Positions 15,099 to 64,000 of a DNA stretch of 64,000 nt are shown in pieces. Under the pieces are notes generated by a model that saw only the letters and a program-made list of their open reading frames with translations, did not search any database and had not been told where the DNA came from. The translations under genes were made by a program, and so were the position numbers. The stretch's first letter is position 1. Each line of letters opens with the position of its first letter. Source of the DNA: Candidatus Sericytochromatia bacterium (GTDB lineage Bacteria; Cyanobacteriota; Sericytochromatia; S15B-MN24; UBA4093); the NCBI GenBank assembly GCA_036676455.1, contig JAKFCW010000021.1:21367-85366 (forward strand), read 5' to 3'.

Positions 15099-16154
15099 CT
15101 AACTGGGCCGGAAGATCCGCGCGAGCTCGGGCGCGATCCGCGGCAGGGGAAGGACCTTGTCGACCACGCCGGACTCGAAGACCGCGCGCGGCATGCCGTA
15201 GACCACGCACGATTCCTCGTCCTGGGCCCAGATGGGCGATCCGGCGCGCTTCATGGCGCCAGCACCGGCCGTCCCGTCATTGCCCATGCCGGTCATGATC
15301 AGGCCCAGGGCCCGCGGGCCGTAGCTCATGGCCACCGAAGCCATCATGACGTCGACCGAGGGCTTGTGCCAGGTCTTGGAATCCGAGGAATCAATCAGCT
15401 GCACGAACGACCCGCGCGGGTCCACCTTCACGGTGAGGTGCCAGCCGGCCGGGGCGATGTAGACGGTCGCGGGCTCCAGCTTCTCGCCTTGCTCGGCTTC
15501 CTTGACGCGGACGCAGCAGAGCTTGTCGAGGCGTTCGGCGAGCGAGCGCGTGAAGCCCGGAGGCATGTGCTGGACCACCAGGACCGGCACCGGGAAATCC
15601 GCGGGCAGCTGCGGCAACATGGCCTGAAGGGCCGGGGGGCCGCCGGTGGAGATGCCGATGGCGACCAGGTCCACCTTCTGGGTCAGGCGCGGCTCGCCGA
15701 TCCTGGGCGGCGGGGCGGTGGGCGTCGGCAAGGGCGGCAAGGGGCCGGTCCGGCGAGGACGGCTCGCTTCCTTGATCTTGGAGGTGAGCTCGTGCTGGAC
15801 CGTGAAGACGTCCAGCATCGAGGTCTCGGGCTTCGGCACGAAGTCGAAGGCACCCAGTTCCAGGGCCTGCAGGGTGGCGGAAGAGCCGTTCTGGGTGAGG
15901 GTACTCATCATGATGACCGGCACGGGGCGCTCGAGCATGATCCGCTTCAAGGCGGTCAAGCCATCCATCACCGGCATCTCGATGTCCATGGTGACGACGT
16001 CGGGGCGCAGCGCGGCGATCTGCTGGATGGCCTCGGCGCCGTTGGAGGCTTGGCCGACGATCTCGATTTCAGGCTCGGAGGTGATCATGCGCGTGATGGC
16101 CCGCCGCATGAACGGCGAGTCATCGACCACCAGCACCTTGATGGGCCTAGCCAT
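15099..16154 (-). CDS. cheB: Protein-glutamate methylesterase CheB (REC + methylesterase)
   Basis: REC domain (VLVVDDSPFMRR ... DVVTMDIEMPVMDG) plus esterase motifs GISTGGP, HMPPGFT and GMGNDG. Confidence 0.92.
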   Translation of the reverse strand: MARPIKVLVVDDSPFMRRAITRMITSEPEIEIVGQASNGAEAIQQIAALRPDVVTMDIEMPVMDGLTALKRIMLERPVPVIMMSTLTQNGSSATLQALELGAFDFVPKPETSMLDVFTVQHELTSKIKEASRPRRTGPLPPLPTPTAPPPRIGEPRLTQKVDLVAIGISTGGPPALQAMLPQLPADFPVPVLVVQHMPPGFTRSLAERLDKLCCVRVKEAEQGEKLEPATVYIAPAGWHLTVKVDPRGSFVQLIDSSDSKTWHKPSVDVMMASVAMSYGPRALGLIMTGMGNDGTAGAGAMKRAGSPIWAQDEESCVVYGMPRAVFESGVVDKVLPLPRIAPELARIFRPS

Positions 16155-17001
16155 GGCTGACCTTCTTCGCGGGGTCGAGCGCTTCGTAGTAGATGGCCTG
16201 CTTGTTGGATTTAAGCATGAAGTCCACCTCCAGGGACAAGAGTGACTCCGAGTGACCGATCAAGAGGTAGCCTCCGGGGGCCATGGCGCGATGGAAGATC
16301 TCGACCATGCGCTTCTGGGTGGCCTTGTCGAAGTAGATGAGCATGTTCCGGCAGAAGATCACGTCGAACGCCGAGAACCCGGGCCACTTCGCCATCTCGA
16401 AAAGGTTGCCCTGCTTGAACTTGACCCGGCCTGCCAGGCGGCTGCCCGCCCGGTACAGATCCCCCTCGGGGGTGAAGTACTTGGACAGGTACTTGCCGTC
16501 CGTGGCCCGGAACGCCGAGCGCGGGTAGAGACCCGTCTGGGCTTTCTGGATGACCGGCCCGTCGATGTCGACTCCCCAGATCTCCACCTGCCACCCGGCA
16601 AGCGAGACCGGCGCCTCGTCCATCAACATGGCTATCGTATAGGGTTCCTCCCCCGAAGAGCAAGGTGCGCTGAGGATTCTCAGCGTCCGGTTGGCCTTGC
16701 GCTTGACGATCTCGGGCAAGAGCTCGTTCTTGAAAAGCTCGAGCTGGTTCATCTCGCGGAAGAAGTAGGTCTCGTTGATGGTCACCAGCGGCATCAGATC
16801 GTTCCAGGCCTTGATGGATCCGAAGGCCATCTCCTTGAGCAGCATCTGGCTGAAAGCCGCCATCGAGGAGGCCCCATGCGAGCGGGCCACGGGAATCAAG
16901 CGGTCCTTGAGGAACTCGAGCTTGCTCTCCTCGAGCCGAATGCCGCAATAGCCCTGGATGACATCCCTGAGCTGCAGCAACTCGCCACGCGAGATTTCCA
17001 T
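16147..17001 (-). CDS. cheR: Chemotaxis protein methyltransferase CheR (copy 2)
   Basis: NETYFFRE, SAPCSSGEEPYTIAML and IFCRNMLIYF. Overlaps the cheB start by 8 nt. Confidence 0.9.
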   Translation of the reverse strand: MEISRGELLQLRDVIQGYCGIRLEESKLEFLKDRLIPVARSHGASSMAAFSQMLLKEMAFGSIKAWNDLMPLVTINETYFFREMNQLELFKNELLPEIVKRKANRTLRILSAPCSSGEEPYTIAMLMDEAPVSLAGWQVEIWGVDIDGPVIQKAQTGLYPRSAFRATDGKYLSKYFTPEGDLYRAGSRLAGRVKFKQGNLFEMAKWPGFSAFDVIFCRNMLIYFDKATQKRMVEIFHRAMAPGGYLLIGHSESLLSLEVDFMLKSNKQAIYYEALDPAKKVSHG

Positions 17002-17004
17002 GGA

Positions 17005-17841
17005 TCACTCCTTCATCGGGCGCCGGTAAAGCAAAGCTCCGGCAAGAGGTTGGGTTTCGAACGGATGGGGAACGAGGTGAAGCGTCTCACCTTCCCCGAC
17101 GAAGAGCAGGCCACCGGGGGCCAAGGCGTCGTGAAGCCGCTGCAGCAGGGCCTCGCGGAAGGCGTTGTCGAAGTAGATCATGACGTTGCGGCAGAAGATC
17201 ACGTCCCACGGGCCCGGAGGCGGCGGGGCCTTCAGGTTGTGGGGCATGAAGCGCACCAAGGCCTTGACGGCGGGCTTGACCCTGAGGGTGAGACCTTCCG
17301 ACTCGAAGTACGCCTCCCGGTAGCCCAGCGGCAGGTTCTCCAGCCGCCAGTCGCTGTAGATGCCGCTGCGGGCCTTCGCCAGAGCCTGCGTCGAGAGATC
17401 TGTGGCCAGGATCTCGGCATCGAAGCCCCGCGGTTGCTGCGCCAGGACGGTCATGGCGAGGGAGTAGGGCTCTTCGCCCGTCGAGCATGCCGCACTCCAG
17501 ATGCGCAGGCGGGGGCGGTCCAGGATGCCCGTTCGGCGGCGCGCCGCCAGCTCCGGCAACAAGCCGGCCAGGGCCTCGAACTGGGCCGGCATGCGGAAGA
17601 AGCTGGTCTCGTTGATGGTCATGCCGTCGACGACGGAGACTTTCACCTCGGGCGAAGTCCGGCACAGGCTCCAGAGCGCTCCCAGGTCCGCAGCCCCCCA
17701 TTCCTGGGCGAGCGCCTCGAGGCGGCGCTCCAGGAACGCGCGCTTGCTCTCAGGGTAGGCGAGGCCCGCTTCCTGGTAGAGCCAGTCGCGAATCGCCTGA
17801 AGCGCCAGCGCGTCAGACGGCGTGGTACGCCCCGGATTCAT
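17005..17841 (-). CDS. cheR: Chemotaxis protein methyltransferase CheR (copy 1)
   Basis: NETSFFRM, SAACSTGEEPYSLAMT and IFCRNVMIYF. Separated from CheR copy 2 by a 3-nt gap. Confidence 0.9.
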   Translation of the reverse strand: MNPGRTTPSDALALQAIRDWLYQEAGLAYPESKRAFLERRLEALAQEWGAADLGALWSLCRTSPEVKVSVVDGMTINETSFFRMPAQFEALAGLLPELAARRRTGILDRPRLRIWSAACSTGEEPYSLAMTVLAQQPRGFDAEILATDLSTQALAKARSGIYSDWRLENLPLGYREAYFESEGLTLRVKPAVKALVRFMPHNLKAPPPPGPWDVIFCRNVMIYFDNAFREALLQRLHDALAPGGLLFVGEGETLHLVPHPFETQPLAGALLYRRPMKE

Positions 17842-19972
17842 GGCGCTCCTTGCCCTCTCCCTCGTCGATCAGGGTCGCGATATCCAGGATCAGGGCCACT
17901 CGGCCATCTCCCAGGATGGTCGCGCCGGCCACCCCGCGAATCTCGCCCAGGTAGTCGCCCATCGACTTGATGACCACGTCCTGCTCGCCCTCGAGCGAAT
18001 CGACCACGAGGCCGATCTGCTTGTTCTCGCCCCCGACGATCACCACCGGCGAGTAGCGGCTGGCGCGCGGCTGGGAAGCGAGCCCGAAGGCGTTGGTCAG
18101 GCGGAACAGCGGCACCACCCGGTCGCGCAGCTGGATCACCTCGCGCTGGTTCACGGTCTTGATGTCCGAGTTCGCCACGCGGATGGATTCCTTGACGGCG
18201 TCCAGGGGAATCGCGAAGAAGTCACCGCCGGCCTTGATGAGGAGGGCCTTGGTGATGGCCAGGGTCAGCGGCAGCTTGATGATGAACTTCGAGCCCTCGC
18301 CGACCTTGGAGACCACCTGGATGGTGCCCTTGATCTTGCGGATATTCTGGTTGACCACGTCCATGCCGACGCCGCGGCCCGAGACGTCCGTGACCTTCTC
18401 GGCGGTGCTGAAGCCCGGGTGGAAGATGAACTGGAGGACGTCCATGTCGGAGTAGGTGCCGTCGGCCGTGGCGATGCCCATCTTGCGGGCCTTGGCGAGG
18501 ATCGTCTCGGGGTTGATGCCGCCGCCGTCGTCCGCGATGCTGATTACGATGTGGTTGCCCTCGCGGTGCGCGCCGAGGCGGATGGTGCCGAGGCGGGGCT
18601 TGCCGGCGGCCTCGCGGACGTCCGGGGCCTCGACGCCATGGTCGGCGGCGTTGCGCAGGAGGTGAACCAAGGGATCCTCCAGCTCCTCGACGACCGTCTT
18701 GTCGAGCTCGGTGTCCTGGCCGAAGATCTCCAGCTTGATTTCCTTGTTCATGGACTTGGCGAGATCGCGGATCAGGCGGGGGAACTTGCTGAAGACCCGT
18801 TCGACGGGGATCATGCGCACGCGCATGACCGTGAGCTGAAGCTCGCTCATGAGGCGGGCCACCTGGGCCACGGTCTCGTTGAGGGTGCCGACCAGCGGCT
18901 CGCGGTCGTAGCGGTTCTCGAGCTCGTTGCCCAGCCGCGCGAGGCGGGTATTGCCGATGACCAGCTCACCGACGACCTCCATGAGGAGATCCAGGCGCTC
19001 GACGTCGACGCGGATGCTCTGGGCCACGGCCGGGACCGCCTTCTTGGCAGGAGGCTCCTTTGCCGCCGGGACTGCCGCGGCGGCAGCTGGGGCGGCAGCC
19101 GGGGAAGCAGCCGGGGCCATGGCGGGCGCAGTCGTCGGAGCGGCCGCGCTCGCGCCTGGTGCCTCGGCGGCAGGCGGGGTGGGGTGGGCGGGACCGGGTG
19201 CATGCAGCACCATGATTGCATCGCTGCTGAAGGGCAGCAGGATGCTCAGGATGGGGGGTTCCGCGGTGGTGACGAACAGGGCGGTGCCGGAGACCGGGAA
19301 GGGGCCTGCGCCGGGCGCGTGCGGGGGAATCGGGGGGTCCGAGAGGATGCCGATGACCTCACCGAGGGAGTAGAGTTTCTCCATGACGGCGTGGTCGAGC
19401 ATCTCGTCGCCCCAGCGGCAGTCCGCGAGGTCGAGGGCGATCTCGTAGAGGTAGCGGGACTCGGCGTCCAGCTTGCCGAGGAGGGCCTGGTGCTTGGCGC
19501 TCATGCCCGCCATGTAGGCGGGGTCGAAGGGGTAGGGAGGGGCCTGGGTGCCGGAGGCCTCCGGGGTGGGCTCACCGTCGAGAATCTCCTTGAGCGCCTC
19601 GACGGTGGGGGTGATGTCGAGGCCGTTGCCGACGGTGCCGCCACCGAGTTCGACGAGCAGGGTTCCCAGGGCGTCGACGGACTCGAAGAGGACCTCGACC
19701 CCGCGTAGGGTCAGGGTGTGCTTGCCTGCGCGGATGGCTCCGAGCAGGTTCTCCATCTGGTGGGTGAGGGTGGCCACGGTCTTGAGACCGAGCATGCCGG
19801 CCGCCCCCTTGATGGAGTGGGCGCCCCGGAACATCTCGTTGAGCAGCTCGATGTCGAGCGACTCGCCGACCATGCCCTCGAGGGTCATGAGGCCCTGTTC
19901 GAGGGTGTCGAGGTGGCTGCGGGCCTCTTCGAGGAAGGCCTGGAAATCTTCCGCGTCGAACTCGAGACTCAC
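17813..19972 (-). CDS. cheA: Chemotaxis histidine kinase CheA
   Basis: HPt motif FRGAHSIKGAAGMLGL, a long Ala/Pro linker, kinase boxes HLLRNAADHGVE, DDGGGI and GRGVGMDVV, and a C-terminal CheW-like P5 domain. I place the start at a GTG that overlaps the cheY stop (GTGA). The ORF-track ATG at 20095 would run 127 nt into cheY with Arg-rich junk. Confidence 0.9.
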   Translation of the reverse strand: MSLEFDAEDFQAFLEEARSHLDTLEQGLMTLEGMVGESLDIELLNEMFRGAHSIKGAAGMLGLKTVATLTHQMENLLGAIRAGKHTLTLRGVEVLFESVDALGTLLVELGGGTVGNGLDITPTVEALKEILDGEPTPEASGTQAPPYPFDPAYMAGMSAKHQALLGKLDAESRYLYEIALDLADCRWGDEMLDHAVMEKLYSLGEVIGILSDPPIPPHAPGAGPFPVSGTALFVTTAEPPILSILLPFSSDAIMVLHAPGPAHPTPPAAEAPGASAAAPTTAPAMAPAASPAAAPAAAAAVPAAKEPPAKKAVPAVAQSIRVDVERLDLLMEVVGELVIGNTRLARLGNELENRYDREPLVGTLNETVAQVARLMSELQLTVMRVRMIPVERVFSKFPRLIRDLAKSMNKEIKLEIFGQDTELDKTVVEELEDPLVHLLRNAADHGVEAPDVREAAGKPRLGTIRLGAHREGNHIVISIADDGGGINPETILAKARKMGIATADGTYSDMDVLQFIFHPGFSTAEKVTDVSGRGVGMDVVNQNIRKIKGTIQVVSKVGEGSKFIIKLPLTLAITKALLIKAGGDFFAIPLDAVKESIRVANSDIKTVNQREVIQLRDRVVPLFRLTNAFGLASQPRASRYSPVVIVGGENKQIGLVVDSLEGEQDVVIKSMGDYLGEIRGVAGATILGDGRVALILDIATLIDEGEGKERHESGAYHAV

Positions 19973-20334
19973 TTGGCCATGGCTCCTTCGATCGCCGCGA
20001 TGACCCGGTCCTTCTGGAAGGGCTTGACGATGAAGTCCTTGGCCCCGGAGCGGACGGCTTCGACGATCATGTCCTGCTGGCCGACGGCGGAGCACATCAC
20101 GACGCGGGCCTGGGGGTTGGCGGCGACGATGGCCTTGACGGCTGCGATCCCATCCATCTCGGGCATCGTGATGTCCATGGTGACGACGTCGGGCTTGACC
20201 GCGGCGAACTGCTCGATCGCCTCGAGGCCGTTGCCCGCCTCACCGGCGACTTCCCAGCCTTTCTCGGCGATGATCTTGGCGAGGTTCTTCCGCATGAAGG
20301 GGGCGTCATCGACGATGAGGACCCGGATGCTCAT
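19969..20334 (-). CDS. cheY: Single-domain response regulator CheY
   Basis: 121 aa: MSIRVLIVDDAPFMRK ... DVVTMDITMPEMDG ... KDFIVKPF. It is the in-frame tail of ORF 19969..21177, and its ATG overlaps the cheX stop (TAATG). Confidence 0.92.
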   Translation of the reverse strand: MSIRVLIVDDAPFMRKNLAKIIAEKGWEVAGEAGNGLEAIEQFAAVKPDVVTMDITMPEMDGIAAVKAIVAANPQARVVMCSAVGQQDMIVEAVRSGAKDFIVKPFQKDRVIAAIEGAMAK

Positions 20335-52347: not shown

Positions 52348-52821
52348 ATGCCCCCTTCGGCTCCCCTTCGTGCGCTGATCGTCAAGACCCAGGCCCATAC
52401 CTGCGCGCTGCCACTGGAAGAAATCATCGAGACCATGCGCCCCCTGCCGGTCCGACCGCTCGCCGGAACCCCACCCTTCGTGCGGGGCGTCGCCCTGGTC
52501 CGCGGCACGGGCTTGCCCGTCCTTGACCTGGGCGCCCTCCTCGGAGAGCCGGCATCCGAAGCGCCAGCCTTTCATGGCCTGACCCGTTTCGTGACCATTC
52601 GGGCAGGCGGTCGTTGCGCAGCGCTCGCCGTGGCCTCCGTCACGGGCATCGTCGCGTTCGCCGAGACGGACTTCGAGGCCCTGCCCCCGTTGCTCGCCGG
52701 AGCGGACGGGGTCGCCACCATGGGCGTCTCGGACGACCAGCTGATCCTGGCGCTGCAGGCCGCTCGGCTGATCCCGGCAGACCTCTGGCCCTTGCTGATT
52801 CCAGACGAGGAGGGGTCTTGA
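52348..52821 (+). CDS. cheW: CheW-like coupling protein (Che-II, copy a)
   Basis: 157 aa single CheW-like domain (CALPLEEIIETMRPLPVRPLAGTPPFVRGVALVRGTGLPVLDLGALLG). Confidence 0.78.
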   Translation: MPPSAPLRALIVKTQAHTCALPLEEIIETMRPLPVRPLAGTPPFVRGVALVRGTGLPVLDLGALLGEPASEAPAFHGLTRFVTIRAGGRCAALAVASVTGIVAFAETDFEALPPLLAGADGVATMGVSDDQLILALQAARLIPADLWPLLIPDEEGS

Positions 52822-54302
52822 CCGTTTCGATCGAGTCCTTCCACATCGATCGCTTCAAGGAACTGATCACCGACGGACTCGGCTTCCAGGTCGAGGACGA
52901 CGGCACGGTGCACCTGCATGCGCTGCTGCAGGAGCGCCTTCGCGACACCGGCAACCGGACCGCCGATGCCTACCTGGACGACCTCCACGATCCCGAGCGG
53001 CGTCACGCGGAGCTGCAGGCGATCGCCCAGCACCTCACCGTCGGCGAAACCTATTTCTTCCGGATTCCCGAGCAGTACCGCGCCCTCGCGGAGGCCGCCC
53101 TTCCCGATCGCCTGCGCGTGCGCCAGGGCCAAGGCCCCGTCCGGATCCTCTCGGCCGGCTGCGCCAGCGGCGAAGAGGCCTATACCGTGGCCCTGCTGCT
53201 GCGCGAGGCCATGCCCAACCTCGACCCACAGGACGTCTCGATCCTGGGCGTCGATGTCAATCCCGCCTTCCTAGCGAAGGCCCGCAAGGCACAGTTCTCG
53301 CCCTGGTCGCTGCGCGGCCTCGCCCCCGAACTTCGCGAGCGCTATTTCCGCGAGGAGAACCGGACCTTCCACCTCGACCCGACCGTCACGGCCATGGTCC
53401 GCTTCGAAGCGCGAAACCTCATGGCGGACGACGGCTGGGAGCGCGAAGCCTTCGACATCATCTTCTGCCGCAACGTCTTCATCTACTTCTCGCCGGAAGC
53501 CACCCGCAAGGCCCTTTCTCGCCTCACTCGGGCCATCGCCCCCGGAGGCTACCTCTTCCTGGGCCCCGCCGAGACGCTGCGCGGCATCTCCCGCGCGTTT
53601 CGCCTGATTCACACCCATGAGACCTTCTATTACCAGCAGGTTCACGCCGCCCAGGCCCCGCCGCCCGACGAGGCCCCCGCCCGTCCTGATGCCTCCTGGG
53701 TCGACGCGGTGCATCGCGCCTCCGAGCGCATCTCCACCCTCACCGCCGCTGGCGCCAAGCGCCTCACGCCCGACGCTCCCCTCTCCAAGGGCCGTCCGGC
53801 CTGGGAGCTCATGCCCGCACTCGAGCTCTTCAAGGAGGAACGCTACACCGAGGCCCTGGCCTCTCTTCGGGCGCTGCCGCCGGAGGCCCTCCGCGATGCC
53901 GACGTCCTCCTGCTGCTCGCCGCCATCCTGACGAACGCGGGCGATCGCCCCGAGGCGGAACGCGTCTGCCATGAGGTCCTGGCCCTGGACGCGTTCTCGG
54001 CGGGCGCCCACTACCTCCTGGCCCTCTGCAGCGAGCAGGCCGGTGACTTCGAGGCCGCGCGTCGCCACAACGAGACGGCCACCACCCTGGACCCGAGTTT
54101 CGCGATGCCGCGCCTTCACCTCGGCCTGCTGGCCAAGCGCAGCGGATCGTTCGAAAAGGCGCGCCGCGAGCTCGAACGTGCCCAGGCGCTACTCTCTCGC
54201 GAGGAGGCGCCACGCATGCTGCTCTTCGGAGGGGGCTTCAACCGTGAGGCCCTCATGGGACTTTGCGCCGCCGAGATCCGGCGCTGCCAGGAGGCGCCAT
54301 GA
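52818..54302 (+). CDS. cheR: CheR methyltransferase with C-terminal TPR-like domain
   Basis: The TTG start overlaps the cheW stop (TTGA). Motifs: [38 protein letters not shown]. The C-terminal ~170 aa form TPR-like helical repeats ([34 protein letters not shown]). Confidence 0.85.
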
Positions 54303-54802
54303 CAAAACCCGGAATCGACGCCAAGCTCGCCGAGCTGCGCTCCGCCTTCGACGAAAGCTTCGCCCAAGCGGCGGCTCCGCTGGAGGACGCGGGGGAACGC
54401 CTCCTGGCCATCCGGATCGGCGACGAAGGCTACGCCCTGCGTCTCAGCGAGATCACGGGCATCCAGGCCCTCCGCCGGGTCGTGCCGTTACCCGGAGGGC
54501 CCGAGGGCTTCCGTGGGCTCGCGGGCATCCGCGGACGGCTGGTCGCGGTGTACGGCCTCGCGGCCCTGCTCGGCATCCGCGGGGCGGGCGAGGAGAATTG
54601 GTTGGTCTTGACGCAGGGAGCCGAGCCCATCGGGCTCTCCTTCCCGGCGTTCGAAGGATTCCTCGAGGAATCCGCGCTCCACCCGGCGCAGGAACGGGAG
54701 TCGGAGCATGTTCGGGAAGTCCTGCGCACCGGATCCGTCGTCCGCGGGGTGATTCACCTCCCCTCGGTGTCCGACGCGATCATGAGGAGAACGAGGCCAT
54801 GA
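54299..54802 (+). CDS. cheW: CheW-like coupling protein (Che-II, copy b)
   Basis: 167 aa ([53 protein letters not shown]). ATGA overlaps occur at both ends. Confidence 0.78.
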
Positions 54803-56262
54803 TTCGTTGGACGTTCGGGCAGAAGATCACCGCGGGCTTCGCGGTCACATTGGCCCTCACCCTGTTGATCGGCGGCGTGACCATCGCCACCCTTCACCAT
54901 GTGGTCGAGAAGAAGGATCGGCTCGTCACGCAGTATGCCGAGAACCTGATCTCCGCCCAGCTGCTGGATAGCCTGTATGCGAAGCAAAGCGCCCAGAACC
55001 GCGCCTTCCTCCTCACCGGGGATCAAACCTACCTGGTGGCAGCCCAGGAATTCCGAAAGGACTTCACCGGGACCGTCCTGGCGATCGACGCGAACCTCAC
55101 GAACCCCGATGCGCGCCGCCAGGTCGAACGCATCCAGACCGCCGAGGCCAGCTACCAGGCGGGCGCGAGGACGCTTCTCCAGGCCCGTGCGGTCGGCACG
55201 ACCAGCGAAACCATCATGCGCCGCTTCGAGTCGGAACTCGCGCCCCAGGCCGAGGCCCTCAGCCGGGAAATCGAGACCTTCAAGCGCCTGGAGCGCGACC
55301 TGCTCGAGAAGGCCAAGGAGCACTCCACGCAAGACGCCGAGCAGGGAAGCTTCTTGGTCTTGCTCATCGCGGCCCTGGCCTTGGGGATCGCCTCGGCGAC
55401 GGCCGTCGTGCTCACCCGTTCGCTCTCGCGCCAGATCGGCTCGACCATCCAGCACCTCCAGAGCTCGTCGAGCGAGCTTCACGCGGCCGCCAACCAGCAG
55501 GCCACCGGCTCCGGCGAGCAGGCTGCCGCGATGACCGAGGTCTCCACCACCATGAAGGAGCTGCTCTCCACCTCGCGCCAGATTGCGGACAGCGCCCAGC
55601 AGGTGGCCCGCATCGCCGAGGAAACCGCGACGGCCGCCCGCTCGGGCGATCGCAGCGTCGTGAAAGCCCAGGAGGCGGTCGCCATCATCAAGCGGCAGGT
55701 GGACCAGATCGTCCTCCACATGCTCGACCTGGGCCGCAAGTCCCAGCAGGTCGGCGGCATCCTGGAGATCATCAAGGAGCTGGCCGAGCAAACCAACATC
55801 CTGGCCATCAACGCCACCATCGAGGCAGCCGGTGCCGGAGAGTCGGGCAAGCGCTTCGCGGCCGTCGCCGACGAGATCCGCAAGCTGGCCGACCGCGTCT
55901 CCGGCTCGACGGGCGACATCCGCATGCTGATCGACGAGATCCGCACCGCCGCCAACACCACGGTCATGACCACCGAGGACGGCAGCAAGGCCGTGGAGAT
56001 GGGAGCCCAGCAGTTCGGCGAGCTGGCGGCCGCCTTCAACCAGATCGCGAGCCTGGTGGCCACCACGGCGGAGGCCGCCCGCGAGATCGAGCTGAGCACC
56101 AAGCAGCAGTCCACCGCCGTCGAGCAGGTCAACATCGCCATCTCCGACGCCGCCCAGGCCGCCAAGGAGACCGAGGCCAGCTCGCGGCAGACCCTGCAAA
56201 CGTCCTCCCAGCTGGCCGGCGTCTCGCGTGAGCTGGCCCAGATCGTCCGCGCGAGCCGATGA
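54799..56262 (+). CDS. Methyl-accepting chemotaxis protein (short, helical-bundle sensor, no obvious HAMP)
   Basis: 487 aa with two TM helices flanking a ~170-aa helical periplasmic domain. Signalling hairpin: [41 protein letters not shown]. Confidence 0.88.
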
Positions 56263-58259
56263 AGCGGGACCAGTTCAAATACTTCCGGATCGAGGCCCGG
56301 GAGCTGGTCGACGGCATGACCCAGCTGCTGCTGGAGATCGAGCGTTCCGGCCCCGCGGAGGGGCGCGTATCGACGCTGTTGCGGCTGGCGCATACCCTCA
56401 AGGGGGCCGCGCGCGTGGTCGGGCTGGGGGCGATCGCCGAGGACGCCCACGCCATCGAAGACCTGCTCGAACCTTTCCGCGGCGGGACCGTTCCTCTCGA
56501 CCAGGATGCCATCGAGAAGGTCCTCTTCCGGCTGGACGCTATCAGCGCCGGGGTCGCGGGCGTCTCGGCCCCCGGCAGCAGGCCTGCCAGCTCAACTGAC
56601 AGCCCTGCTGTCGGAGAGGCCTTCGAGACCGTCCGGGTCGAGCTTGGCGCGCTCGACGACCTGCAAGAAGGCCTCATCGAGTCCGGCATCCAGCTGGATG
56701 GCTTGCGCCGCCACGTCAGCACGATCGCTCGCCTGCGCTCTCAACTGGACTCCCTCGGAGAGCTTGCGGCCCATCCCGCCGTGCAAGACCTGGAGGTCTC
56801 GCTCGTTGCGCTGAGACAAGCGCTCGACGACGGGCTCGAACGAACTGCGGCCGCTCTGGGGGACAGCCGCGAGAAGGCCAATGCCTTGCGGCTCGTGCCA
56901 GCGAGCCGCGTTTTCTCCCAGCTGGAGCGCGCCGTCCGCGATGCCGCCGAATCGCTGGGCAAGCGCGTCGCCTTCGAGACCCTCGGCGGCAGCGCCCGCC
57001 TGGAGGGCCATGTCCTCCAGCCGATGCGCGACGCCCTCCTGCACATGGTGCGCAATGCCGTCGACCACGGCATCGAGCCCGAAGCCGAGCGCTTGGTGAA
57101 CGGAAAGCCCGCCGAAGGCCAGGTCCATGTATCCCTCGTGCGGAAGGGAAGCCGTCTCGTCTTCACCTGCGTGGACGATGGGCGCGGCATCGACCTGGAA
57201 GCGGTTCGCCAAGCCGCCTTGCAGCGCGGCGAGATCGGAGCGGCCGACGCGCTCAGCCATGACGCCCTCATCCAGCTGATCCTGCGCGCCGGCGTGAGCA
57301 CCACGTCCGCGGTCACCCCCTTCTCGGGGCGCGGCATCGGCCTCGACGTCGTCCGAGAGACCGTCGCCAAGCTCGATGGGGAACTGACCATCCAGAGCAG
57401 CCCCGGCCAGGGAACGACCCTTTCGATCAGCGTGCCCCTTTCCCTCTCGTCCATCCCCACGCTGGTGGTGCAGGCGGGAGAGAGCGCCGCCGCCATTCCC
57501 CTGAGCGCCGTCCGCCAGGCCCTGCGGATCGACGCGAGCGAGATCTCGCTGACGGCCCGCGGGGCCACCGTACTCCACGACGGCGTCGAACTGCCTTTCC
57601 GAGCGCTCTGCGAGATCGTGAATCAGCCCGCGGCTTTCGAACCCAGTTCCTGGAGCGTGATCGTCGTCGAGGCCCAATCGACCCGCGCCGCGTTCGGCGT
57701 GGACCGCATCATCGGCGTAGCGGAGGTGGTGCTGAGGCCCCTTCCCGCTGCCGCCGGCGCGATCCCGCTGGTGGCGGGGGCCAGCTTCGACGCGGAGGGC
57801 CACCCGCAGCCGATTCTCGACCCCCGAAGCCTGGTCAATGCTGCCCGCATGCAGCCGAGCCCCCCGAAGCCCACCCGTCGCAAGCCGAAGGTGCTGGTGA
57901 TTGACGACTCGCTCACGACCCGGATGCTGGAGCAGAGCATCCTGGAGTCCGCGGGCTACGCGGTCGAGTTGGCCACCAACGCCGAGGAGGGCCTAGCGAT
58001 GGCCCAAGCACAGGCCTACGACCTCTTCCTGGTGGACGTCGAGATGCCCAGGATGGACGGCTTCGCGTTCCTGGGGCGCGTCCGGGCCGATGCCAAGCTG
58101 AGCCGGGTCCCCGCCGTCATGGTAACGAGCCGCAACGCACCGGAGGATCGCCTACGCGGCCTGGAGGCGGGCGCCCGGGCCTACCTCGTGAAGTCCGAGT
58201 TCCACCAGGGGCGCTTCCTGAGGACCATCGAATCGCTGCTGAGGGAGGCTCATGACTAA
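56259..58259 (+). CDS. cheA: CheA-REC hybrid chemosensory histidine kinase
   Basis: HPt motif [16 protein letters not shown]. Kinase boxes [18 protein letters not shown] and [10 protein letters not shown] CheW-like P5 domain is followed by a C-terminal REC ([12 protein letters not shown] ... [14 protein letters not shown] ... LVKSEF). Confidence 0.9.
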
Positions 58260-59310
58260 GATTCGCGTGCTGGTCGTCGACGACTCGATCACCGTGCGCA
58301 AGCGGCTGATCGAGATCCTGAATCGCGACGAGAAGCTGGAAGTGGTCGGCGAGGCCGTCGACGGCCGCCAGGCCATCGAGCTCTGCGAGCGGCTGCGCCC
58401 CGACGTCGTGACCCTCGACCTGGTCATGCCCGTCCTCAACGGGCTAGCGGTCACCGAGCACCTCATGGCCTACTGCCCGACACCCATCTTGATTGTCTCC
58501 GCCGCCACGAACCGCGGGGAACACTTCGACACGTACGAGGCCTTGGCCGCCGGAGCCCTCGATGTCCTGGACAAACCGCCCGGCGCCGAAAACCGGGCCT
58601 GGGAGCAGCAGTTCATCGCCACCGTGAAGCGGGCGTCTCGCATCAAGGTGATTCCCCATCCCCGGGCGAAGCTGAGCCGCCGACGCCCCGTGAACGCGCC
58701 AGTCCTTCCGGTCGAGCCGGCAGGCCCATCCACGGGCCCTCACGAGCTCGTGGTGATCGGGGCGTCGACCGGAGGCCCCTCGGCCATCCGCGAGATCCTC
58801 GCAGGCCTGCCTCCAAACTTCCCGCTGCCGATCCTGATCGTCCTGCATATCGGGGAATCGTTCGCCGGAACCTTCGCCGAGTGGCTCGACGGCGTCTCGC
58901 CCATCCCTGTGAGACCTGCCCGGGACGGAGAGCCCTTACCCAAGCCCGGCAGCGCGAGCGTCCTCGTGGCTGCGGCCGACCGCCACCTCGAGCTCCGGAA
59001 CGGGTGCCTGCACCTCGTTCACGGACCCGAGCGCCATGCCTGCCGGCCGTCGATCGATGCGCTCTTCGAGACGGTCGCCCGTGACGCCGGCCCCCGCGCC
59101 ATCGCGCTGCTGCTAACCGGCATGGGCAAGGACGGAGCGTCAGGCCTCAAGGATATCCGTGACGCCGGCGGCCTGACTGTGGCCCAGGATGAAGCCAGTT
59201 GCGTGGTTTTCGGCATGCCGCGCGAGGCCATCCGCCTCGGAGCGGCATCCCACGTGCTCCCCCTGGGAGAGATAGCCCCCTTCCTGCGATCCCTCGCCCG
59301 GAGGACCTGA
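58252..59310 (+). CDS. cheB: Protein-glutamate methylesterase CheB (Che-II)
   Basis: REC domain ([12 protein letters not shown] ... [14 protein letters not shown]) plus esterase motifs GASTGGP and GMGKDG. Confidence 0.9.
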
Positions 59311-62048
59311 TGACGAAGCACATTCTCATTCTCGACGACAGCCTAACCGTACGCATGGACCTTCACGAGGCCCTCGAGGAAGCAGGCTTCCGCACCACCC
59401 TTTGCGCCACCGTCGCCGCGGCCCGCGACGCCCTGGCGACAAGCCAGCTCGACCTGCTCTTGCTGGACGTCTTGCTTCCCGACGGCGACGGCATCACCCT
59501 GCTGCATGACCTCAAGCGCCATCGCGAGACGGCGCAGCTTCCCGTCATGCTGCTCTCCTCGGAAGCCGCGGTCCAGGACCGCCTCCGGGGCATGGCCACC
59601 GGCGCCGACGACTACGTCGCAAAGCCCTACGATCGCGCTTACGTCGTCGCGCGAGCCCGCGAGCTGCTGAAGCCTCCCGCCGAGCCCCGAGATGGCCCCC
59701 TCGTCCTGGTGATCGACGACAGCCGCACGTTTCAGCATGCCCTGAGGCGCGTCCTGGAGGACGCGGGCTACACCGTCCTCCCGGCCCTGTCGGGTGAAGA
59801 GGGCCTGCGCTTGGCGGCGAGCACCCGTCCCGACGCGGCCATCATCGACGGCACGCTGCCGGGCATCGACGGCGCGACCGTACTGCGCCGCATTCGCATG
59901 GACGCCGCCCTGCGCCGCACGCCTTGCCTGCTGCTCACGGCCGCGGAAAGGCCTGAGGACGAGCTTGCCGCGCTCGAAGCGGGAGCGGATGCCTACCTGC
60001 GAAAGAGCGAGACGCTGGAGATCGTCCTGGCCCGTCTCTCGGCGCTGCTTCGCGGAGCCGGGGAGCCATTGCCCGTCGGTGCGGATCCCAGCGGCCTCGG
60101 TCCCAAGCGCATCCTGGCCGTCGACGACTCCGAGACCTACCTCCAGGACCTCGCCCGCCACCTGCGAGAGGAAGGCTATGACGTGGCCCTGGCACATTCC
60201 GGCGAGGAAGCCCTCGAGGTGCTGGCCGTGCAGGCCTTCGATGGCATCCTGCTGGACCTTTTGATGCCGGGCATGTCCGGGTCCGAGGCCTGCCGGCTTA
60301 TCAAGCAAAACCCCGCATGGCGGGAGATCCCCTTGGCCATCCTCTCGGTGTCCGACTCACCGGAGGTGATGATCGAGGGCCTCAACGCCGGCGCCGACGA
60401 CTACATCGTCAAGGACTCCGACTTCGACATCGTCAAGGGGAGGCTGCGCGCCCAGCTGCGCCGCAAGCACTTCGAGGAGGAGAACCGCCGGATCCGCGAG
60501 GAGCTGCTGCGCAAGGAGCTGCAAGCCACCGAGAGCCGGGCCGCCCGCGAGCTGGCCGAGACGCGCGCCACGCTGCTGGCGAACCTGGCGCGAAACAACG
60601 CCGAGCTGAAGAAGGCCAAGGAGCAGGCCGAGGCCGCGACGGCCGCCAAGTCGGAGTTCCTCTCCAACATGAGCCACGAGATCCGCACGCCCCTCAACGC
60701 GATCCTGGGCATGGCGGACCTCCTGGCCGAAACCGCGCTCACGCCCGAGCAAAGCCAGTACGTGCGCATCTTCCAGCGGGCGGGCGACACCCTGCTGGAG
60801 CTGGTCAACGACATCCTGGATCTCGCCAAGATCGAGGCGGGGCAGTACGAGCTCGAGCACATCCCGTTCGATCTGGCCGACCTGGTCGAGCGGACGGTCA
60901 GCCTCCACGTGGCCCGCGCCGAGGAGAAAGCGCTCGAATTGAGAGCCGAACTCACTCCCGACGTCCCCACGCGCCTGCTCGGCTCACCCCACTCGCTGGG
61001 CCAGGTGCTGAGAAATCTCCTGAGCAACGCCCTGAAGTTCACCGAGCAGGGGAGCGTGAGCCTGCGGGTCGAGACGGCCCCGGGCATGATGCTGCGCCTC
61101 ACGGTCTCGGACACGGGCATCGGCATCTCCCCCGAGAAGCGGGACCTCATCTTCGAGTCCTTCACCCAGGCGGATGCCTCCACCACCCGCAAGTTCGGGG
61201 GGACCGGACTGGGGCTCGCCATCTCGAAGCAGCTGGTCGACCGGCTGGGAGGCAGGCTCAGCGTGGAGAGCCGGCTGGGCGAAGGCAGCGACTTCCACGT
61301 CGAGTTGCCCTACGAGGTCGATCCCCATCCGGCCTCGCACGAGGCTGGCGTCGAGCCCCAGAGCGCCCAAGAGCCGGAGTCCCTGCGCATCCTGATAGCC
61401 GAAGACTCCGAGGACAACCGCCTGGTGCTCGAGGCCTACCTGAGCCAGACTCCGCATCAGGTGATCATGGAGGAGAACGGGGCGCTGGCGCTGGCGCGCT
61501 TCAAGGCCGAGCCGTTCGACCTGGTGCTCATGGACATGCAGATGCCGGAGATGGACGGCTATGCGGCGACCCGGGCCATCCGGCGCTGGGAGGAGCAGAT
61601 AGGGCGCGAGCGGACTCCGATCATCGCGCTGACGGCCTTTGCTCTCAAGCAAGAAACGGACCGCAGCCTGGAAGCAGGTTGCGACCTGCACCTCACCAAG
61701 CCGTTCAAACGGGCCCAGTTGCTGAAGGCGATCGCCGAGGTCGCGGCCCAACGGGACCCCCTCGACGAGGCCTTCGAGGAGGCCATGAAGCAGCTCGTTC
61801 CCGGCTACCTGAAGAAACGCGCCCAGGACCTGGAAATACTGCGAAATGCCCTGCGGCAAGAGGCCTTCGCCGACATCCAGGATATCGGGCACCGCATGGC
61901 GGGTTCGGGGGCGTCTTACGGCTTCGCGTCGCTGACGGAGATCGGTCGAGGCCTCGAGGCCGCCGCCCGGGACGGGGAGTCCCCGGCGATCGCCCGCCTC
62001 CTCGATGAGCTGGAGGCGGTGCTCGCCGCGGCGCAAGCGGAAAGCTAG
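59310..62048 (+). CDS. Hybrid sensor kinase: REC-REC-REC-coiled coil-HisKA-HATPase-REC-HPt
   Basis: 912 aa from [11 protein letters not shown]. There are three N-terminal REC domains ([48 protein letters not shown]). H-box [21 protein letters not shown] and G-box [14 protein letters not shown] follow. A fourth REC ([16 protein letters not shown]) precedes a C-terminal HPt-like [14 protein letters not shown]. The ATG shares 1 nt with the cheB stop. Confidence 0.88.
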
Positions 62049-64000
62049 ACGGGCAAGGGGCCCCCGACCGGCAGCGAGAACCAGGCGGTGACGCCTTCCT
62101 CCTGGCTGAGTACGCCAAGATTCCCGCCATGGGCCTCGGCGAGCGCCCTGCTGAGCCCAAGGCCAAGGCCCAGGCCTTTCTGGCCGTTGCCGGGGCGGTC
62201 CACCGCGGTGAACAAGTCCGGAAGCTTTTCCGGCGGAATCCGGCTTCCCGAGTTGAAGACCTCGCAGAGCAGGCGATCCGCCTCGATCCGGGCGCTGATC
62301 GTGACCGTCGCCCCCTGCGGGGCGTACTGAACGGCATTGGAGACGAGGTTGAGGCCAATCTGCGCCAGGCGCCGCCGGTCGGCCATCACCCGGGGGAGAT
62401 CCGCCGCGATCCCGTCGCGCACCTGGATGCCCTTCAGGATGGCCGAGGCGGCGAGTTCGGCCACCACGTCGCGCATGATCGTCTCGAAAGCCAGGGGCTC
62501 CGGGTATAGCTCGAGCTGCCCGGAGCGCAAGAGGTTGGATTCCAGGACATTGTTGACGAGCCGCGTGAGCTCACGGCCGTTGCGGATCAGCTTCGCGACG
62601 TAGAGGCGCTGCTTCTCGGTGAGGGGCCCGAGCGCCTCGCCCTGGAACAACAGGGCCGCTCCCAGGATCACCGTGAGCGGAGAGCGGATCTCGTGGGTGA
62701 GCGTGTTGAGGTAATGATCCTTGAGCTTCTCGGAGGCTTCGAGGGTCTTGATCTGCATCTCCTGGAGCTTTTCCTTCTCGATGCGATCCGTGACCTCGCG
62801 CGCGAACGCCAAGAGCCCTTCGTGCTCGCCTTCGGGCGAGCGACACGGAATGAGGCTGTAATCCCAGTAGGTCAGCTGCTCGAGGCCATTCTGGCGCAGC
62901 GTCAGAGGGATGCCTCGCTCACGGTAGGGCTCTCCAGCGGCCATCACGGCCTCGAAACGCTCGGCGCTGTGCCCTAAGAGGGGAACATCCTCGGCCGAGA
63001 GCATGCTGACCTGCTCGGCGGAGAATCCGAATCGCGCCAGGGCCTCGGGGCTCATCCACTGACACGCGCCGTCATCGTCGAAGTAGGCGACCGCCGCGGG
63101 CACGTGGTTCAGGATGCGCCGGAACAAGCGATCGCGCGCCTGCAGGTCCTGGTCACGTTCGGCAAGCTGGCGCACCGCCTCGGCATTTCGCAAACTCAGC
63201 AGGTCGCGGGCCTCCCGGCATTCCTCGGCTTGGTGCAAGACGTCATCCAGCGCGTGCCGACTTTCGGTGACGTCTTGCACCGAGCCATGTAGCCGCAGCG
63301 CCTGCCCTTGAGTTCCCACCTCCACGGCTCCCCGCACGAGCACGATTCGTTGCTCCCCGCCCTGCTGCAGGATGCGCTGCTCGATGGAAAACGGGAGGTG
63401 ATCCTGCTGGGCCTGCTCGAGAGAGGAGCGGATGAGCTCGCGGTCCTCGGGATGAACGCAGCTCAGGTAACTCTCCAGGTGTGGCTCGAAGGCGTGCGGA
63501 TCCCGGCCGAAGACCTGGTACGTCGACTCGGACCACGTGACCGTGTCCGTGCTCAAGTCCCACTCCCAGCTCGCAAGCTTGGAAAGCGCCGTGGTCTTCG
63601 TGAGGAGGCGCTCCCGATGCGCGAGCGCCTCCGCCTCGCGCTTGCTCTCCGAGATCTCTTGAACCTGCACCACGCAGAAGCGAGGAAGCCCCTTCGATTC
63701 CCGGATGAGCGTGCTGGTGACGAGCGCCCAAGAGAGGTGGCCGCTGCGGTGAACGTAGCGTTTCTGCAACTGGTAGCTGCGAATCTCGCCTGCGACGAGG
63801 CGACGAAACTGAGCGACCGACTCGGCGAGATCGTCCGGGTAGGTGAGGTCTCCAAAGGACAATCCCAGCAGCGCTTGCTCGGGATAGCCCGTCAACTCGC
63901 AGAGGGCCCGGTTGACCCGCAGCAAGCGACCCTGGAGATCCAGCAGAGCCAGGCCGCTGGCGGAGCCGGTGAAGGTGGCTTCGAGGATGCGTTGCTGATC
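62045..64000 (-). CDS. Multi-PAS sensor histidine kinase, N-terminus beyond window
   Basis: The frame stays open to base 64000 (...[23 protein letters not shown]). Several PAS-like repeats are present. H-box [18 protein letters not shown] and ATPase boxes [11 protein letters not shown] and [18 protein letters not shown] follow. Confidence 0.85.

Follow-up and report, generated by a model that had tools for sequence, protein, structure and literature searches.

The 64,000-nucleotide stretch of DNA analysed here (the window), part of contig JAKFCW010000021.1 of Candidatus Sericytochromatia bacterium, contains an open frame of 912 codons (59310-62048, plus strand) whose product, according to translation and Pfam, is a histidine kinase of the architecture REC-REC-REC-HisKA-HATPase-REC-HPt. 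Its gene is the last of seven plus-strand genes, arranged in the order cheW, cheR-TPR, cheW, CHASE3-MCP, cheA-REC, cheB and kinase; successive genes overlap by 1-8 nt and are translationally coupled. Comparison with other genomes revealed that the kinase gene is the fixed terminal gene of a cassette conserved as a unit across several phyla. The reading that we favour, with moderate confidence, is that the kinase is the output of a chemosensory pathway of the ACF (non-motility) class, in which receivers gated by CheA control a kinase feeding a phosphorelay. Four other explanations were weighed against it and are rated well below it. The CheA and CheB proteins of this operon are referred to as CheA-II and CheB-II.

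All Pfam domain matches of the kinase exceed the gathering scores: four Response_reg stretches (E 3e-94 overall), HisKA at residues 446-511 (2e-23), HATPase_c at residues 560-669 (3e-30) and Hpt at residues 838-910 (5e-9). The phosphorylation sites D53, D180, D316, H456, D742 and H861 are all intact, and alignment with the receivers of CheA-II, CheB-II and CheB-I, the last from a separate che cluster of the window, showed that the D-D / D / T-or-S / K catalytic set is complete in REC1 to REC4. A reading of this DNA made earlier without database searches (the sequence-only reading) had described three N-terminal receivers with acidic pocket and acceptor Asp, a kinase core, a fourth receiver and an HPt-like C terminus. 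The motifs that it quoted are all present in the translation, and its domains agree with the Pfam assignments and the intact phosphorylation sites. The C-terminal half of the protein is a complete His-Asp-His relay of the unorthodox hybrid kinase type, with a histidine in DHp (H456), an aspartate in REC4 (D742) and a histidine in HPt (H861), in that order. Besides its receivers, the kinase has no sensor domain and neither a GGDEF nor a PAS domain according to Pfam. In a scan of the NCBIfam library no model reached its cut-off on the 912-residue protein, the best scores being those of BarA (488 against a cut-off of 890 bits) and TorS (480 against 676.5). A PDB sequence search returned generic kinase-core and single-receiver structures only, with no multi-receiver kinase template. 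The gene and its parts are as follows.

59310-62048, plus strand: triple-receiver hybrid kinase, 912 aa (translation, Pfam, AlphaFold2)
59319-59669, plus strand: REC1, aa 4-120, acceptor D53 (Pfam, alignment, model)
59700-60059, plus strand: REC2, aa 131-250, acceptor D180 (alignments)
60108-60422, plus strand: REC3, aa 267-371, acceptor D316 (alignments, model)
60423-60644, plus strand: predicted signalling helix, aa 372-445, extending REC3 alpha-5 into DHp (AlphaFold2, homologue spacing)
60645-61316, plus strand: kinase core, HisKA/DHp aa 446-511 (H456) and HATPase_c aa 560-669 (Pfam, model)
61386-61748, plus strand: REC4, aa 693-813, acceptor D742 (Pfam, alignment, model)
61758-62042, plus strand: HPt four-helix bundle, aa 817-911, H861 (Pfam, alignment, model)

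The start codon of the kinase gene (ATG, 59310-59312) shares one base with the stop codon of cheB (TGA, 59308-59310), as the sequence-only reading had observed. The junction sequence is GGAGGACCTGATGACG, and a GGAGGA Shine-Dalgarno motif is located 5 nt upstream of the ATG.

In a search of 5.8 billion proteins, over 100 clusters shared this N-terminal module, with 45-60% identity across about 89% of the query; the named sources include Rhizobacter, Aquabacterium, Herbaspirillum, Solimicrobium, Rhodospirillaceae and Sericytochromatia. Twelve independent loci holding the N-terminal receiver module were compared, nine from the protein search (L001, L002, L003, L009, L010 and L092-L095) and three from named genomes (L012, L013 and L014, from an Acidobacteriota, a Polyangiaceae and a betaproteobacterial metagenome-assembled genome, respectively). 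In all 12, which represent the lineage of the window, Betaproteobacteria, Alphaproteobacteria, Acidobacteriota and Myxococcota, the kinase gene comes immediately after che genes of this cassette. Its start and the cheB stop overlap by 1 or 4 nt in each of the ten loci with gene calls or open reading frames (ORFs), and the full order cheW, cheR(-TPR), cheW, CHASE3-MCP, cheA-REC, cheB is found in 10 of the 12; in L095 the cassette is interrupted by the contig end. The view of the kinase as dedicated to the che operon, for which the sequence-only reading had proposed a survey of other genomes downstream of cheB, is supported by the invariable position of cheB directly upstream.

Named genomes were scanned on the basis of the family alignment, with a generic H-box peptide as the pattern. 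Since this pattern drew unrelated kinases, the scan is no taxonomic census: the matches listed were largely unrelated hybrid kinases, and after sorting by tblastn L012-L014 were the only family members among the matches listed. Few of the scan loci without the receiver module (L015-L091) have any che-like match, and none has the full cassette.

Because of this synteny, the explanation that an unrelated two-component kinase sits by chance after cheB is practically excluded, and we give it hardly any credence: the genes are adjacent in 12 of 12 loci from at least five phyla, the overlapping start is kept in all ten that were checked, and the module, rare in its own phylum, travels with the che genes and not with the host lineage. 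Of 201 genomes sampled within the phylum of the window, 5 carry the module; these belong to a single order, and two species of the same genus lack it. In view of its patchy cross-phylum distribution, the cassette is an accessory unit, and horizontal transfer is suggested. The cassette family is defined here by orthologous REC1-3 at the N terminus of a kinase encoded directly after cheB of a cheW-cheR-cheW-MCP-cheA-cheB series, and the window kinase fits this definition.

The genes following the kinase vary by locus and include, for example, AraC regulators and a glycosidase. In the Polyangiaceae locus (L013:8722-12551) the kinase is devoid of REC4 and HPt and is followed by an overlapping gene for a second hybrid kinase, HisKA-HATPase-REC. 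In the betaproteobacterial locus (L014:9671-12837) the kinase has two receivers, REC1 being absent and the matches covering REC2-REC3 only, and it is followed by a REC-adenylate/guanylate cyclase gene that has a 4-nt overlap with the kinase stop and may give this cassette a cyclic-nucleotide output.

The six genes preceding the kinase in the operon are as follows.

52348-52821, plus strand: cheW-1, first gene of the operon (Pfam CheW 2e-21)
52818-54302, plus strand: cheR-TPR fusion (Pfam CheR 4e-48 plus TPR_2, TPR_19 and TPR_1)
54299-54802, plus strand: cheW-2, divergent (Pfam CheW 1.5e-9; ATGA overlap with cheR)
54799-56262, plus strand: MCP with CHASE3-like sensor, 487 aa (Pfam MCPsignal 6e-34, CHASE3 4e-6)
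56259-58259, plus strand: cheA-REC, with Hpt, HATPase, CheW-like P5 and C-terminal receiver (Pfam)
58252-59310, plus strand: cheB with N-terminal receiver (Pfam CheB_methylest 3e-60)

A non-coding gap of 377 nt precedes cheW-1. The cheR-TPR gene has a TTG start, an AGGAGG Shine-Dalgarno motif and a 4-nt overlap with the cheW-1 stop; a second cheW occupies the same position as cheW-2 in L001, L003, L009 and L092-L094; and the product of cheB scores 349 bits against NCBIfam NF009206 (cut-off 342). Orthologues of the MCP in relatives are 487-493 aa long. A 763-aa ORF (53971-56262) was rejected as the MCP gene since comparison with relatives identified it as an over-extension that spans the end of cheR, cheW-2 in another frame and the real MCP from 54799. 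Consensus scans inside the operon gave promoter-like and terminator-like sites not above the expectation from shuffled sequence.

No P2 match was found in CheA-II by Pfam, and the operon (52348-62048) contains no cheY, cheZ, motor or flagellar gene; its sole receiver protein other than CheA and CheB is the 912-aa kinase. The hallmarks of the ACF class are a CheA with a C-terminal REC and without P2, a CheR-TPR and a multidomain response regulator (PMC3447774), the criteria being those of the Wuichet and Zhulin 2010 classes in the form in which they are applied in that paper. With a CheA-REC lacking P2, a CheR-TPR and a multidomain regulator, and with neither CheY nor CheZ, the operon bears the hallmarks of this non-motility class, as judged by domain and gene content.

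REC1, REC2 and REC3 each match the same-position counterpart in homologues, mostly with 50-65% identity, which indicates that they are an orthologous unit and not recent duplicates; within the protein they are mutually 29-38% identical. The five catalytic positions of REC1-3 are kept in 88-100% of 107 aligned homologues, and the acceptor Asp in 97-99% (D53 in 104, D180 in 106 and D316 in 104 of the 107). To judge from this conservation, the three receivers are under purifying selection and none is a pseudo-receiver, which answers the reservation about missing key residues that accompanied the sequence-only reading. REC2 is the receiver nearest to the fused REC of CheA-II (45-48% identity here, and the best score in eight of nine loci), a weak hint that it may share the CheA P1 domain as donor and may be the favoured first target. 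The region after REC3 is more variable. Some homologues, for example L012 and L092, carry one to three PAS domains before the kinase, and in many the stretch separating the kinase from the last receiver is longer by about 170 residues. A recognisable HPt is absent in about half of the homologues; among the 27 in which the HPt alignment is informative, 26 have a histidine at the position of H861.

These data also bear on the explanation that the kinase is an integration node, with REC1-3 fed by different donors (CheA-II, other kinases or feedback from its own HPt) and firing on a combination of signals, so that the kinase would have further inputs besides the che array. Full catalytic sets are under selection in all three receivers, which a single on/off input would not require, and with 29-38% mutual identity their partner specificities could differ. 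The PAS domains inserted between REC3 and the kinase in some variants show that additional inputs are tolerated. Possible donors are at hand: the host genome encodes more than 60 HisKA-type kinases, and a PAS kinase lies tail to tail with the triple-receiver kinase, their stop codons overlapping. Yet no second kinase is conserved beside the cassette, the PAS kinase being retained only in the closest relative, and the che genes are co-inherited with the receiver module, for which one donor is the simplest account. Integration of several donors is unlikely, though it is the alternative to which we give the most weight.

AlphaFold2, run with 38 family sequences (mean pLDDT 84.8, pTM 0.36), yields four (beta-alpha)5 receivers, the DHp hairpin, the CA (catalytic, ATP-binding) domain and a four-helix HPt, the folds that make up the His-Asp-His relay being modelled with high local confidence. 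The coiled coil that the sequence-only reading had placed after the receivers appears in the model as a single unbroken helix, residues 372-473, which runs from alpha-5 of REC3 into DHp and includes H456. In 93 of 95 non-PAS homologues, the distance from the REC3 Lys to the DHp His takes one of a few values: 57, 64 or 78 in one register, and 74, 81, 88, 95 or 102 in the other. The two registers are offset by three residues, and members within each differ by whole heptads (helix at 60423-60728), the tally being one of length classes among related sequences and not of independent events. This is the pattern expected if the helix must hold phase between REC3 and the kinase.

Such phasing argues against the explanation that the receivers serve as a phosphate sink or delay line, draining or buffering the phosphate of CheA-II and setting the gain and timing of the array, with the kinase core independent or constitutive. 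The length of the REC3-DHp helix varies almost only in heptad steps, a signature of a regulatory connection, and the kinase core and the context of H456 are invariant across the family. The idea has precedents, since receivers that act as sinks, whether fused or additional, are documented in CheA3-REC and Helicobacter pylori CheAY2 (PMC3868531), and the resemblance of REC2 to the receiver already fused to CheA-II could be taken in its favour. On balance we regard a sink as improbable.

The favoured reading, in which the kinase is the output of the che array, can be laid out as a sequence of four steps. The receptor array would control CheA-II, and phosphorylated CheA-II (P1/Hpt) would then phosphorylate at least one of D53, D180 and D316, with REC2 weakly favoured as the first target. 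The phosphorylation state of the receivers, read via REC3 and the heptad-phased helix, would switch the core between kinase-on and kinase-off/phosphatase states. Phosphate would finally pass from H456 via D742 to H861, and from there to a response regulator whose gene lies outside the operon and which may be supplied by the host and differ among lineages.

The opposite direction of flow can also be envisaged, with the kinase as an input that senses a cue and whose HPt passes phosphate to CheB-II or to the receiver of CheA-II, tuning adaptation. One HPt can serve several receivers, the operon offers two others (CheB and CheA-REC) and no stand-alone regulator, and the lack of a recognisable HPt in about half of the homologues implies that the relay end is dispensable and the receiver module is not. 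However, a kinase without any sensor besides its receivers needs an upstream donor, and the cyclase gene overlapping the kinase stop in L014 looks like a downstream target. Reverse flow is accordingly rated as a little less probable even than the sink.

Several points weigh against the reading of the kinase as the array's output. The phosphotransfer from CheA to the receivers is inferred, and co-transcription of the operon is deduced from the gene overlaps alone. The similarity margins that single out REC2 are small, with L010 as an exception. The AlphaFold2 model shows a monomer of what should be a dimeric protein, and with a pTM of 0.36 it does not define how the domains are positioned towards each other. 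In L002 (GCA_017744355.1; L002:4504-12811) the otherwise identical cassette has no MCP between cheW-2 and cheA, so its array must either rely on a receptor from another locus or do without one. Finally, no gene downstream of the kinase is conserved with the cassette among the compared loci.

A more speculative extension concerns the number of receivers. REC1-3 might act as a multi-site unit, either a counter or ultrasensitive gate with sequential or cooperative phosphorylation of D53, D180 and D316, or a three-input coincidence detector. The fast, adapting output of the array might thereby be turned into a slow, switch-like decision of the phosphorelay, and the cassette might be a plug-in decision module, spread horizontally among at least five phyla, that recruits its regulator locally. 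Taken together, these three proposals are a long shot, marginally less likely than the integration of several donors. If true, the multi-site unit would be a processing mode not yet described for two-component signalling.

The surroundings of the operon are as follows.

62045-64000, minus strand: PAS-PAS-PAS histidine kinase, 684 aa, convergent, its start at window-equivalent position 64099 (Pfam)
15099-16154, minus strand: CheB of the cluster Che-I
16147-17001 and 17005-17841, minus strand: two tandem CheR genes of Che-I
17813-20095, minus strand: CheA of Che-I, with P3 dimerisation domain and no fused receiver

The stop codons of the triple-receiver kinase (TAG, 62046-62048) and of the convergent PAS kinase (62045-62047, minus strand) overlap; there is no space for a terminator between them, and the two transcripts must therefore run into each other. 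The sequence-only reading had stated that the final regulator lies outside the window, which is correct. Further along the contig a single-domain REC, in a minus-strand unit with the PAS kinase, and then a REC-GerE regulator on the plus strand are located 100-600 bp beyond the window end, at window-equivalent positions 64101-65212. Genes for two EAL proteins and two HD(HD_5)-PilZ fusions come next. The nearest candidate targets of the kinase in this genome are the REC-GerE regulator and the single-domain REC, which adjoin these cyclic di-GMP (c-di-GMP) genes. Neither these two genes nor the PAS kinase and the HD-PilZ/EAL genes could be accepted as parts of the cassette, since they are kept only in L001, the closest relative, whose kinase is 86% identical.

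The two HD-PilZ fusions are paralogous (HD_5, HD-GYP-like) and flank the two stand-alone EAL proteins (L011:3403-9129, window-equivalent 65336-71062). The pairing of a c-di-GMP hydrolase-type domain with a c-di-GMP-binding domain is uncommon, and it is kept in L001. The classical che cluster Che-I (15099-20095, minus strand) is separate from the operon, and its tandem CheR pair is unusual.

To our knowledge, non-motility chemosensory pathways are common and the output is known for only a handful of them. The analysis defines a coherent cross-phylum family, a seven-gene cassette that always ends in a kinase with a conserved receiver module, mostly of three receivers. The family is made tractable by cultured and sequenced carriers, Rhizobacter sp. 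Root1221 and Herbaspirillum sp. CF444. The questions it opens are why several functional receivers in series are needed and how a phosphorelay is linked to an array that adapts. As far as this genome is concerned, the outcome amounts to ordinary annotation of an accessory signalling cassette, and the arrangement will not surprise a specialist; the strict conservation of three receivers in a portable cassette nevertheless poses a clean experimental question.

A literature search found no paper describing or testing the triple-receiver kinase family, and the novelty assumed by the sequence-only reading holds to the extent that this form is without published characterisation. The principle itself is known. 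The claim of novelty was too strong, being preceded by CheA3/CheS3, by WspH and by a 2012 survey, and the interpretation as a whole is partly supported: it was reasonable, and comparative genomics strengthened it.

In Rhodospirillum centenum, CheA3 phosphorylates the first receiver of CheS3 and lowers the kinase output of CheS3 to CheY3, as was shown biochemically (He et al., 2013, PMC3868531), with the Asp in the receiver of CheA3 itself mutated for the assay. The Che3 cluster resembles the present operon in its CheA-REC, in a second kinase with tandem N-terminal receivers, in the absence of another membrane sensor and in a non-motility output, as in the ACF class here. CheS3 is, however, a REC-REC*-PAS-HWE kinase with a pseudo-receiver in second place, Ala occupying the acceptor position, and without a C-terminal REC or HPt, whereas the present kinase has three intact receivers, a HisKA core (PF00512), a REC-HPt relay and no PAS. 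CheY3 is encoded in the R. centenum cluster, while no CheY is encoded in the operon here.

In Burkholderia, WspH is the REC-kinase output of the Wsp cluster, studied genetically, and probably acts through the distant response regulator RowR (Cooper, 2014; Kessler et al., 2021, PMC8552884). The Wsp-like ACF cluster of B. cenocepacia shares CheR-TPR, two CheW, CheA-REC and CheB with the present operon, and a receiver-histidine kinase replaces the REC-GGDEF protein WspR. WspH has a single REC (tabulated as REC-HisKA_HATPase_C), is encoded in a 5' separate transcription unit and is reported only in Burkholderia; the kinase described here is encoded by a 3'-terminal gene overlapping cheB, within a different gene order, and has three receivers plus REC-HPt. 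From the Pseudomonas-type Wsp system, whose genes run from wspA (the MCP) through wspB-C-D-E-F to wspR, the operon differs in having no GGDEF output and in the position of the MCP gene, which is the fourth and not the first.

According to the survey of cheR-TPR clusters by Munoz-Martinez et al. (2012, PMC3447774), a HisKA+HATPase module is present in about 40% of the response regulators in such clusters, and Table S2 of the survey includes REC-REC-REC-PAS-kinase outputs. L012 and L092, verified relatives of the window kinase, have exactly this form. The table is a purely bioinformatic listing that offers neither a definition of the family nor an analysis of its conservation nor an experiment, and in which the combination of three RECs, kinase, REC and HPt does not occur, and its Anaeromyxobacter (Fw109-5) entry is likened to the window kinase by listed architecture only. 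Comamonas Flm was rejected as a comparator because it is a Tfp-class pathway with single-domain regulators, as was Halomonas cluster 2, which ends in an HPt-REC-REC-GGDEF protein.

The HisKA-HATPase-REC-HPt half of the kinase is like those of BarA, ArcB, TorS and EvgS, but these have periplasmic or PAS sensors, lack a receiver module and are encoded outside che operons. Myxococcus xanthus RodK, as cited in PMC3868531, has three receivers that are all needed for function; in that account they follow the kinase, are targets of its own kinase domain and are not linked to a che operon. The window kinase resembles these systems without belonging to any of them, since it lacks the defining features of Wsp/WspR, WspH and CheS3 and falls below the curated cut-offs. 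With its three live receivers and its full phosphorelay, it is an uncharacterised variant of a type of chemosensory output that is known and has been catalogued.

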